NCBI GenBank assembly: GCA_049303675.1
Contig: JBAQNJ010000001.1
Coordinates: 747,569-811,568, forward strand
From: Microgenomates group bacterium
GTDB taxonomy: Bacteria; Patescibacteriota; Microgenomatia; UBA12405
DNA: 64,000 bases
Reading direction: 5' to 3'
Part shown: positions 39,913-63,359 of the stretch, one piece after another
Numbering within the stretch: position 1 is the stretch's first letter
How the letters are laid out: each line of letters starts with the position of its first letter
Position numbers and translations under genes: made by a program
Notes under the pieces: model-generated
What the model saw: the letters and a program-made list of their open reading frames with translations, nothing else
Told to the model about the DNA's origin: nothing
Database searches by the model: none

Positions 39913-40665
39913 ATGACACCTCTAGAACAATTTGGCCTAGTATTTCTTAAACGTGAAGATAAAAATATAACCGGCTCAGCCAAAGACCGTGCTATTGATC
40001 TTCAGACAAACCAAAAAATGACTCACGCCGTCATTTCCTCAACCGGCAATGCGGCTATTTCCGCCCAATATTTTTGTCACTTAAAAAATATCCAGCTGAC
40101 TACTTTTATTTCACCTAAAACTAGCCTCCAAAAGATAAAACTCATTGATAATCCGATTGTTACCGATAAACCAATATCAGAATCTTTCAAATTTTCCAAA
40201 AAAAATCACTCTTATTTATTACGCCAATCAACTGACCCCATTGCTTTACTGGGCTATCAAAAGATCGGCCAAGAAATTATTGTTCAATGTCCCCTAATAA
40301 CTAGCCTATTTATTGCTGTAGGTAGTGGCACCACTTTATTGGGCATCTCTCAGGCCCTACCAAAATCAGTCAAAATATTTGCAGTTCAACCAGCATCACA
40401 CTGCCCAATAGCTTCTCATTTTGACAAAGATTTCCAACCAGAGTCGATGACTATTACCGACGCCCTCAACACCAAATTATTACCCCTAAAACAAAAGGTT
40501 ATTGATGCTTGTTTTTCGGGAGTTGTTGTCCAAAACAAAGACATTCTCCCCACAATTGATACTTCAGCCGAAGGCAACCTCGCTTATGCTGGTTACCTCA
40601 AAGCCAAAACTAGGCACCAACTCGGTAACTATCCCGTTATAGTTTTGACCGGTACCCAGCGATGA
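39913..40665 (+). CDS. truncated PLP-dependent enzyme, Trp-synthase-beta (PALP) superfamily, threonine-synthase-like
   Basis: K.EDKN.TGSAKDRA (PLP lysine), SSTGNAA, GSGTTLLG glycine loop, VIVLTGTQ C-terminus; only 250 aa. Confidence 0.55.
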   Translation: MTPLEQFGLVFLKREDKNITGSAKDRAIDLQTNQKMTHAVISSTGNAAISAQYFCHLKNIQLTTFISPKTSLQKIKLIDNPIVTDKPISESFKFSKKNHSYLLRQSTDPIALLGYQKIGQEIIVQCPLITSLFIAVGSGTTLLGISQALPKSVKIFAVQPASHCPIASHFDKDFQPESMTITDALNTKLLPLKQKVIDACFSGVVVQNKDILPTIDTSAEGNLAYAGYLKAKTRHQLGNYPVIVLTGTQR

Positions 40666-41768
40666 CCCCACTTGAAAACCACCTCAACTCACTTCCTTAT
40701 ATTTTCTACTTCTTAGTAGTTGATCCATATCTCGACATCAGTTTGCCCGATCTTTCCAATTTTATATCCATCTCACCTCAAAAACTTGGCATTACTCTTG
40801 ACCAAAAAAATTCCGGTCGACTCTTATCCCATCCCCTATGTTTGGATTTCATTAAGAAAAACACCCCCTCAGGATTCGTTCCGGCTATTATTCCCTTCAA
40901 ACCTTCTCCCAAAATTGATTTGATTTGTACCCAAAATAATTGGGTCAAAATAAGCAATCCCAGTTCAACCAACCGCTACTTTGAAGATAAAATAATATTC
41001 GCCGATCTCTTAGATAAACAGGGCATTTCTCACCTTCCTCATCTTATCAGTACTTTTAACCACCAAAACTATCACCAAATTCAACAAAAATTTGGCCAAC
41101 ATCTGGTAATTCAAACCCATTTTGGTTGGGCTGGAAATAGCTCCTACCTTAGCCATGATTTTAACGATATCAATAGCAAAATAGTTGACGGCACTCCCAT
41201 AAAAGCCTCGCCTTTTTTTCAGGGGATTTCCCTAATTAATAACTGTTGCCTAATTGACAATCAACTTATTCAAAGTCCTCCTGGGCTACAGTTCACCGGC
41301 CACCCGCTCTTAACTGACAACCCTCTGGCTACAGTCGGGCGACAATGGCCCTCGCATACTCCTGCCAATATCAACCAACAGCTTTTTGACATCACTACTA
41401 ATTTTTCAAAAATATTATCTAGTCATAAATATAAAGGTTTTTTTGGACTCGATTTTTTTGTCAGCCAGGACAAAGTTTATCTCCTCGAGTGTAATCCCCG
41501 CCTTACCGCCTCATTTGCCTTTTATACTCAAATTGAGCAAAAAAATCAGCTAGATCCATTATTTTATTACCACCTACTTTCCTTTTTGCCTCAAAATTTC
41601 TATTACCCCTCGTTCGATCGTTTTAACAACAACCTAGTTGGCGCCCAGTTGACTAAAAAAAATTCGCAGGGAGCTACCGTCGAGAAATTCGAAGACCTAG
41701 TCGATATCTGCCCAACGGGTGACCCCCATACCATCTCCCCAGAGTATGTTGAAAAACTAACCAAATGA
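40662..41768 (+). CDS. ATP-grasp family ligase (non-Ddl type)
   Basis: GFFGLDFFVSQDKVYLLECNPRLTAS C-terminal ATP-grasp signature. Confidence 0.55.
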   Translation: MTPLENHLNSLPYIFYFLVVDPYLDISLPDLSNFISISPQKLGITLDQKNSGRLLSHPLCLDFIKKNTPSGFVPAIIPFKPSPKIDLICTQNNWVKISNPSSTNRYFEDKIIFADLLDKQGISHLPHLISTFNHQNYHQIQQKFGQHLVIQTHFGWAGNSSYLSHDFNDINSKIVDGTPIKASPFFQGISLINNCCLIDNQLIQSPPGLQFTGHPLLTDNPLATVGRQWPSHTPANINQQLFDITTNFSKILSSHKYKGFFGLDFFVSQDKVYLLECNPRLTASFAFYTQIEQKNQLDPLFYYHLLSFLPQNFYYPSFDRFNNNLVGAQLTKKNSQGATVEKFEDLVDICPTGDPHTISPEYVEKLTK

Positions 41769-54116: not shown

Positions 54117-54193
54117 TGGTGGTCGTTGTAGGACTCGGACCTACGACCTCATCGATGTGAACGATGCGCTCTAACCAACTGAGCTAAACGACC
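54117..54193 (-). tRNA. tRNA-Val (anticodon CAC), CCA encoded
   Basis: manual fold: 7-bp acceptor, D-arm, anticodon loop TTCACAT; T-loop TCCGAGT (C55). Confidence 0.85.
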
Positions 54194-60078: not shown

Positions 60079-60102
60079 AATTCTTATATTTTAACATTAA
60101 TG

Positions 60103-60175
60103 AGCCGAAGGGGAGAGTCGGACTCCCGACCCACGCTTTACGAAAGCGGCGCTCTACCAACTGAGCTACTTCGGC
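60103..60175 (-). tRNA. tRNA-Thr (anticodon CGT), no encoded CCA
   Basis: manual fold; anticodon loop TTCGTAA; T-arm GGGAG-TCCGACT-CTCCC. Confidence 0.85.
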
Positions 60176-60190
60176 TAAAATATATACGGG

Positions 60191-60261
60191 AGCGGGATAT
60201 GGGAATCGGACCCACTTCTCATCCTTGGGAAGGATACATTCTACCGGTGAACTAATCCCGC
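60191..60261 (-). tRNA. tRNA-Gly (anticodon CCC), no encoded CCA
   Basis: manual fold; anticodon loop TTCCCAA; T-arm GTGGG-TCCGATT-CCCAT. Confidence 0.8.
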
Positions 60262-61205: not shown

Positions 61206-62279
61206 ATGAGTAAACTAAATTTTCCCGTTCAATCAAATAAAGTCGCCGGTGTCGACCAAGACTTCAATATCTCTGACCCAGGCCAAAGACAAACATATTT
61301 TCGTTTAAAAGCCGGCCCAGAAATAGAAAAAATAAAAACGTATCTAGAAAATCGTACCTTTGTCGCCATTATGTTGGGTAAGAAGGGTTCAGGCAAGGGT
61401 ACTTATTCTGGAATGCTCAAAGAAATTTTTGGCGATGATCATATTGGCCAAATTTCTGTTGGTGATATCACTAGAGCTGTATTTGAGGAAATCAAAAATC
61501 CCCAAGGTATGGCAGATCTAAAAAAATATCTCGAAAATAATTATCGAGGGTATATATCTATTGACGAAGCAATCGACATCTTTGTCAACAAAACTCAAGG
61601 TAAACTATTACCCACCGAATTTATCCTCAGTCTAGTCACTCGGGAAATTGAAAAACTTCCCCGTAAAGCGCTCATAATCGACGGGTTCCCTAGAAATGTC
61701 GACCAAGTCTCCTACTCACTCTACCTCCGCTCCATTATCAACTTTAGAGACGATCCTGATTTCATGGTATTAATAGACATTCCCGAGACAGTCATTGATG
61801 CCCGCATCAAAAATCGTTTTATCTGTCCTAAGTGTCAAACTTCTCGAAACCTGACCCTCTTACCTTCAAGTAAGATTGGATTTGATGAAACCAGTAAAGA
61901 ATATTATCTTATTTGTGACAAAGCTGGCTGCGATGGTGGCAGAATGGTCAGAAAAGAAGGTGATGAGCAGGGGATTGCCCCCATTAAAGATCGTTTAGAC
62001 CTCGACGGATCATTAATGGAAATGGCTCAAGACATCCATGGTATTCAAAAAATATTTTTACGTAACCCAATTCCTTTAGAAAAAGTCGACGAAAACTTTG
62101 ACACCTACGAAATGACTCCCGAATTTTATTATGAAAAAAGTGAATCAGGAGAGATAGCTACTAAGACCAAGCCATGGGTGGTCAAAGACGACAATGGTAT
62201 TGACTGCGTTAGCCTTATGGCTCCTGCCGTCATGGTCAGCTATCTCCGTCAATTGGCCAAGATACTACCAAACATATAG
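61206..62279 (+). CDS. adk: adenylate kinase with ~50-aa N-terminal and ~90-aa C-terminal extensions
   Basis: LGKKGSGKGT P-loop, QISVGDITRA, IIDGFPR, zinc-LID CPKC...C..C. Confidence 0.8.
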   Translation: MSKLNFPVQSNKVAGVDQDFNISDPGQRQTYFRLKAGPEIEKIKTYLENRTFVAIMLGKKGSGKGTYSGMLKEIFGDDHIGQISVGDITRAVFEEIKNPQGMADLKKYLENNYRGYISIDEAIDIFVNKTQGKLLPTEFILSLVTREIEKLPRKALIIDGFPRNVDQVSYSLYLRSIINFRDDPDFMVLIDIPETVIDARIKNRFICPKCQTSRNLTLLPSSKIGFDETSKEYYLICDKAGCDGGRMVRKEGDEQGIAPIKDRLDLDGSLMEMAQDIHGIQKIFLRNPIPLEKVDENFDTYEMTPEFYYEKSESGEIATKTKPWVVKDDNGIDCVSLMAPAVMVSYLRQLAKILPNI

Positions 62280-63282: not shown

Positions 63283-63359
63283 GGGTCCTTGGTGCAGCGG
63301 TCTAGCACATCCGCCTGTCACGCGGAAGATCGTGGGTTCGAATCCCATAGGACCCGCCA
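63283..63359 (+). tRNA. tRNA-Asp (anticodon GTC), CCA encoded
   Basis: manual fold; anticodon loop CTGTCAC; canonical T-arm GTGGG-TTCGAAT-CCCAT. Confidence 0.9.

Follow-up and report, generated by a model that had tools for sequence, protein, structure and literature searches.

Results

C55 in three of the four tRNA genes of the window

The window, a 64,000-nt stretch of contig JBAQNJ010000001.1 from a Microgenomates group bacterium, contains four tRNA genes, which were called alike by ARAGORN and by the Rfam covariance model RF00005 (gathering score 29). Three lie on the minus strand: tRNA-Val(CAC) (54117–54193; 68.6 bits, CCA encoded), tRNA-Thr(CGU) (60102–60175; 62.1 bits, without an encoded CCA) and tRNA-Gly(CCC) (60189–60261; 55.2 bits), the last being located 13 nt upstream of tRNA-Thr(CGU) in the sense of the tRNAs. 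The fourth, tRNA-Asp(GUC) (63283–63359; 68.3 bits, CCA encoded), lies on the plus strand. The T-arms of the minus-strand genes read GUAGG-UCCGAGU-CCUAC in Val (54128–54144), GGGAG-UCCGACU-CUCCC in Thr (60111–60127) and GUGGG-UCCGAUU-CCCAU in Gly (60199–60215), with C55 at 54138, 60121 and 60209, respectively, where the plus strand carries a G. In the RF00005 alignments, GGUCCGAGUCC (Val), AGUCCGACUCU (Thr) and GGUCCGAUUCC (Gly) are aligned to the consensus GGUUCgAaUCC such that C falls at position 55, and the T-loop of all three contains U54-C55-C56-G57-A58 where that of tRNA-Asp(GUC) contains UUCGA. The T-arm of tRNA-Asp(GUC), GUGGG-UUCGAAU-CCCAU (63332–63348, plus strand), is canonical, and its U55 at 63338 served as an internal control. 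Both programs thus confirmed an earlier note on this DNA, which had reported C55 in three of the four tRNAs and a canonical tRNA-Asp. The same note had described all other arms as perfect; this did not hold for tRNA-Thr(CGU), in whose anticodon stem cmscan flagged a C27-U43 mismatch, while the remaining sequence details stood.

A fifth tRNA gene and the genomic surroundings

We extended the sequence by 10 kb past each end of the window, giving 84 kb or about 8% of the genome. No tRNA was found in the left flank (L124). On the other side, about 7.6 kb past the end of the window and on the same contig, we found tRNA-Lys(UUU) (L122, 19293–19364, minus strand; 68.8 bits), whose T-arm, GCGAG-UCCGAUC-CUCGC, also carries C55. 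Four of the five tRNAs within these 84 kb therefore have C55, all four being encoded within one 18-kb stretch, and only tRNA-Asp(GUC) has U55. G18-G19, G53-C61, U54, C56 and A58 are kept in each of the four C55 tRNAs, and their anticodon loops (UUCACAU in Val, UUCGUAA in Thr, UUCCCAA in Gly and UUUUUAA in Lys) are all 7 nt long with U33 and A37. Since tRNA-Lys(UUU) combines U34 with C55, the link to C34 anticodons that had been drawn from the three tRNAs of the window fails. The codon AAA, which tRNA-Lys(UUU) reads, accounts for 54.8 per 1000 codons (5.5%) in the open reading frames of the window, so that, barring another copy elsewhere in the genome, translation must rely on this tRNA.

The surroundings are those of an ordinary chromosome, with a large glycosyltransferase/polysaccharide region and a dcw cluster coding for RsmH, a PBP, Mur ligases, MraY, FtsW, MurG, FtsA and FtsZ. 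Other neighbouring genes code for IleRS, a class II aminoacyl-tRNA synthetase, RecO, ParB and a signal peptidase. Within the dcw cluster, positions 39913–41768 code for a PLP-dependent enzyme (PALP) followed by a weakly matching ATP-grasp protein, a pair that may ligate peptides for the cell wall without the need for a tRNA. Positions 61206–62279 code for an ADK-like protein of 357 aa, which contains an adenylate-kinase domain and belongs to a conserved CPR family; of its 1528 homologues (E≤1e-10), nearly all measure about 350–360 aa. In one relative its gene directly follows canonical adk-map, where the ribosomal protein operon ends. Over the entire window (1–64000), the GC skew of the plus strand is strongly negative in every 4-kb bin (−0.11 to −0.35), irrespective of whether the genes are on the minus strand (1–11 kb) or on the plus strand (11–53 kb); as a consequence, plus-strand coding sequences are rich in C and frequently use codons that end in C, such as GTC and ACC.

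The C55 tRNA genes are conserved in related Microgenomates

An independent assembly of run SRR28062879, taken from Logan (L123), is 100% identical to the window over the tRNA-Thr(CGU)–tRNA-Gly(CCC) pair. We gathered the loci of relatives via homologues of the neighbouring ADK-like protein (a metagenome scan with this protein yielded three loci) and found the Gly(CCC)-Thr(CGU) tandem in orthologous loci of related Microgenomates. RNAalifold recovered the cloverleaf from the orthologues, with C55 or with U55, and revealed compensatory double changes in 11 of the 23 stem pairs of tRNA-Gly and in 8 of the 22 of tRNA-Thr, indicating that both genes are under selection for tRNA structure.

These data bear on whether the C55 state could be an artefact, that is, a sequencing or assembly error or the mark of decaying pseudogenes. 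The same change occurs in four separate genes, a second assembly is identical over two of them, the same state is present in several related metagenomes along with compensatory stem changes, and the covariance-model scores are high (55–69 bits, compared to 68 for the canonical tRNA-Asp). We consider an artefact scarcely credible, and the earlier view that these genes are not obvious pseudogenes is borne out by their scores and by their maintenance in relatives. A low model score, broken stems and a lack of conservation, any of which would be expected of a pseudogene, were all absent.

Orthologous tRNAs switch between U and C at position 55

We ordered the relatives by the identity of their ADK-like protein to the copy in the window and recorded position 55 of each tRNA present in the fetched stretch, tRNA-Val and tRNA-Lys being scored only in L126, L132 and L137. 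In the window itself (100%), Val, Thr, Gly and Lys have C55 and Asp has U55. Gly has C55 in L136 (85%), as it does in L140 (79%), where Asp has U55. At 75–76% identity, L126 and L130 have C55 in Thr and Gly, with U55 in Val of L126; L142 (76%) combines U55 in Thr and Asp with C55 in Gly, and Asp of L131 (76%) has U55. Among the loci at 72% identity, L132, L134 and L135 have C55 in Thr and Gly, and L132 also in Val, while L133 has U55 in Thr and C55 in Gly. At 70% identity, Thr and Gly have U55 in L143, L144, L137 and L138, as does Val in L137. Synteny was lost in L127 and L128 (68%), and no tRNAs were found in scans of these two loci.

The 24 distinct tRNA sequences of the clade divide evenly at position 55, with 12 C and 12 U, a split drawn from few isoacceptors that were sampled through one syntenic locus. 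G53, U54, C56, A58 and C61 are invariant in all 24; at position 57, 20 sequences have G and 4 have A. The count of 24 includes tRNA-Gly of L141, without which it becomes 12 C to 11 U overall and 6 C to 2 U for Gly. A run of N (scaffold gap) at approximately 937–946 of L141 lies right at the 3′ end of its tRNA-Gly(CCC), making its U55, differing T-arm and mismatched acceptor stem unreliable; for this reason, L141 was omitted from the comparison above. The T-arms of tRNA-Thr in L126 and L137 differ solely at position 55, and the tRNA-Thr of the window and that of L142 have identical D-loops and differ at position 55. Compensation by the D-loop is thus ruled out, as the same D-loop accompanies U55 in one tRNA and C55 in another, and no compensating change elsewhere in the tRNA was visible among the clade orthologues. 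Every Asp orthologue seen has U55 (L131, L140 and L142; three distinct sequences), suggesting that the relaxation may not extend to every tRNA. [quoted passage not shown]

At the recombinase-bearing site described here, tRNA-Thr(CGU) is absent from L136, L140 and L141. In L136, a large serine recombinase gene (282–1892; Resolvase and zinc-ribbon domains) adjoins the 3′ end of tRNA-Gly(CCC), and matching fragments of the recombinase open reading frame occupy the same place in L140 (3–506) and L141 (2–1039), which suggests that an element integrated at the tRNA-Gly(CCC) site in these three loci.

C55 tRNAs are uncommon overall yet occur in many bacterial phyla

We scanned about 185,000 species genomes for a pattern combining a common D-arm with a GUCCGA T-loop and retrieved at least 120 loci. 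Together they contain at least 143 C55 tRNAs of about two dozen anticodon classes, a list that is biased by the D-arm in the pattern: Gly(GCC) accounts for 60, Thr(GGU) and Asn(GUU) for 11 each, Met(CAU) for 8, Thr(UGU) and Gly(UCC) for 7 each, and Val(CAC) for 6, and Val(UAC) is also represented among the loci listed. The occurrence of C55 in Gly(GCC), Thr(GGU), Thr(UGU), Asn(GUU) and Val(UAC) further dissociates it from C34. The hosts include Prevotella and other Bacteroidales, Fibrobacter, Kiritimatiellia, Lentisphaeria, Planctomycetes, Gastranaerophilales, Clostridia, Bacilli, Actinomycetota (including cultured Arthrobacter and Glutamicibacter), several CPR groups and some archaea. The statement that U55 is essentially universal in bacterial elongator tRNAs, on which the earlier note relied, was therefore too strong, all the more since C55 has been published for tRNA-Gly of Lactobacillus plantarum.

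In most of the C55-bearing genomes, the neighbouring tRNAs retain U55. Unselected tRNAs in the 120 loci have C55 in 6 of about 135 cases, which is probably an overestimate of the background given that these loci were chosen for holding a C55 tRNA. At this rate, the probability of finding at least three C55 among four tRNAs would be about 3×10−4, and that of at least four among five about 2×10−5. C55 is thus rare per tRNA, yet widespread and recurrent, and its density of four in five in the 84 kb is far above background. Among the unselected tRNAs, position 55 is other than U in about 4 of 20 from named CPR loci compared to about 4 of 115 elsewhere (Fisher's test on 4/21 and 4/114, P about 0.02, both samples sharing the same ascertainment); a higher rate in CPR loci is suggestive only, as all of the loci were selected for a C55 tRNA.

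Several of the retrieved loci have features of their own. In Prevotella and other Bacteroidales, tRNA-Gly(GCC) with the T-arm GCGGG-UCCGAGU-CCCGU has kept C55 across dozens of species genomes (for example L014, L044, L048, L074, L089, L108 and L117) and is often duplicated beside tRNA-Leu(GAG) or tRNA-Leu(CAG), both with U55. Two bins labelled Bifidobacterium breve (L012) and Escherichia coli (L052) contain this Prevotella-type tRNA-Gly(GCC), in L052 with tRNA-Leu(GAG), and probably reflect bin contamination. One cluster of a Treponema sp. (L039) has C55 in Thr(UGU) (UCCAAGU), in Tyr (UCCGAGU) and in a pattern-matched Phe. Archaeal tRNA-Asn(GUU) with C55 was found in Woesearchaeota, Pacearchaeota and a Thermoplasmata MAG (L031, L080 and L088). 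G55 occurs in two CPR loci, in Thr(GGU) of L023 (Vogelbacteria; T-loop UGCAAAU) and in Gly(GCC) of L055 (Paceibacterota; T-loop UGCGAAU).

Comparison with known tRNAs lacking U55

The closest published case is that of L. plantarum, in which all tRNA-Gly species except GCC naturally carry C55, a feature called unique, and in which C55U mutants are glycylated equally well (J Biochem 2023, PMC10464925). Its tRNA-Gly(UCC) and tRNA-Gly(CCC) resemble the tRNAs studied here in having C55 in an otherwise canonical elongator tRNA, including the very isoacceptor Gly(CCC) (PMC10464925). However, C55 is confined to Gly isoacceptors in that one species, while here it is found in Val, Thr, Gly and Lys and is polymorphic among CPR orthologues. 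In sequence the present tRNAs match the L. plantarum type, and covariation and codon usage suggest that they may likewise be used in translation. The Gly(GCC) of Prevotella and other Bacteroidales likewise combines a UCCGA T-loop with G53-C61, U54 and A58, beside neighbouring tRNAs with U55. In public genomes C55 is usually limited to one isoacceptor per genome and is stable across species, whereas here it is the majority state among the readable tRNAs.

Two other systems resemble the present one in position 55 only. The non-proteinogenic tRNA-Gly NP1-3 of Staphylococcus aureus lack both U55 and G18-G19 and have a shortened anticodon loop with an extra 31-38 pair (PMC13443448); they share the lack of U55 with the tRNAs studied here, in which G18-G19 and 7-nt anticodon loops are intact. 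The staphylococcal type is further marked by weak binding to EF-Tu and by its use as a substrate of Fem-type transferases. [quoted passage not shown] Its core is remodelled and compact (G8, small D-loop), unlike that of the present tRNAs, which are standard except at position 55. In the literature searched, C55 was not systematically described for bacteria or for CPR. Searches on TruB or pseudouridine in Patescibacteria yielded mostly unrelated papers, and a preprint on tRNA introns in Patescibacteria does not mention the T-loop.

Discussion

Textbooks treat pseudouridine-55 and the contact between G18 and base 55 as invariant in tRNA. What pseudouridine-55 does is nevertheless debated, since truB deletions have mild phenotypes. 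We propose that the C55 tRNAs are ordinary, functional elongator tRNAs of Microgenomates (CPR/Patescibacteria), in a clade that constrains position 55 only to a pyrimidine. We give this reading, built on gene sequences and their comparison, a probability of roughly 0.65; its scope is the five tRNAs of one genome, elsewhere in which paralogues with the same anticodons and U55 may be encoded. The elements from which the T-loop fold and the elbow are built are retained, namely the G53-C61 closing pair, the U54-A58 reverse-Hoogsteen pair, C56 as the partner of G19, and G18-G19. Because TruB requires U at position 55, tRNAs with C55 in its place would not receive pseudouridine-55 from this enzyme and would have to work in translation without it. 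Contact of base 55 with G18, and the U-turn hydrogen bond that its N3-H donates to the phosphate of residue 58, would then be either made by another geometry of C55 or lost, at a cost presumably small enough for U-to-C and C-to-U changes to have been fixed repeatedly among orthologues. T-loop motifs in other RNAs tolerate variation at their second position, which fits such a small cost. On the other hand, pseudouridine-55, which is paired with G18 (PMC7912444, PMC7609411), has been described as the most universally conserved tRNA modification (PMC7912444), so that some cost is to be expected, and this counts against a relaxed position 55.

Why position 55 would be relaxed may be explained at the level of its modification or of the contact between the elbow and the ribosome. 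If the lineage had lost TruB or become independent of it, U and C would be nearly equivalent at position 55 for want of pseudouridine-55, an account that would underlie relaxation to a pyrimidine rather than replace it. The toggling of position 55 between U and C beside frozen T-loop positions is in agreement with this account, as are the G55 of Thr(GGU) in L023 and of Gly(GCC) in L055 and the excess of non-U55 in CPR loci (about 4/20 compared to about 4/115, P about 0.02, with shared ascertainment). However, Asp has U55 in every orthologue seen and many tRNAs of the clade still have U55, and Prevotella, Arthrobacter and Lactobacillus have C55 in tRNA sets that are standard except for that gene. 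A tblastn search with E. coli TruB (NC_000913.3) of the window and all fetched loci, covering about 8% of the genome and hence uninformative, found no TruB homologue. We hold loss or dispensability of TruB to be possible, though doubtful. Alternatively, reduction of the ribosomal L1 stalk in the class may have eased the constraint on the tRNA elbow, with which the stalk is in contact when the tRNA occupies the E site. Microgenomatia are reported to lack helix H78 of the 23S rRNA and der, and Paceibacteria to lack rplA and der (PMC12641178); in keeping with this, the CPR loci with C55 or G55 are labelled Paceibacterota, Vogel-, Adler-, Shapiro- and Amesbacteria. The correspondence is purely correlative, the stalk stacks on the G19-C56 pair and does not read base 55, and phyla whose L1 stalk is normal have C55 tRNAs as well. 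We regard this explanation as unlikely.

Two further alternatives would set the C55 tRNAs apart from ordinary elongator tRNAs or undo the change after transcription. They could form a non-translational subclass, such as aminoacyl donors for the cell wall like the staphylococcal tRNA-Gly, and both the absence of U55 from the S. aureus NP tRNA-Gly (PMC13443448) and the dcw/mur cell-wall cluster in the window speak for such a role. Yet in the staphylococcal tRNAs G18-G19 is missing too and the anticodon loop is short, while here G18-G19, the 7-nt loops and the stems are canonical, the C55 tRNAs span four amino-acid specificities including the heavily used Lys(UUU), and the window showed no transferase of the FemAB type. 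The idea of a subclass with a distinct function, raised in the earlier note, accordingly found no support, and we judge it very improbable. We give still less credence to editing of C55 to U, followed by pseudouridylation: it would account for the interchangeability of U and C at the genomic level, with nothing that supports it directly, but the 84 kb revealed no candidate deaminase, and C-to-U editing at position 55 of tRNA is not known in bacteria.

C55 being published for L. plantarum and easily found in public genomes, the present finding extends a known variant; what may be novel is that C55 is so frequent, and alternates with U in several isoacceptors, within a single Microgenomates clade. 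For annotation, a UCCGA T-loop should be taken as a legitimate, recurrent variant rather than as the sign of a pseudogene or an error. Orthologues with U55 or C55 in an otherwise frozen T-loop constitute natural matched pairs for the contribution of position 55, which could be used to study folding, modification circuits, EF-Tu binding and release from the E site. The finding would gain weight if a genome-wide census tied C55 to the loss of TruB. More tentatively, pseudouridine-55 could be optional across many elongator tRNAs of Microgenomatia, and perhaps of CPR, through loss or dispensability of TruB, a reduced L1 stalk or both, with position 55 drifting between U, C and occasionally G. If so, Microgenomatia, and perhaps CPR, would be natural "no-pseudouridine-55" experiments.
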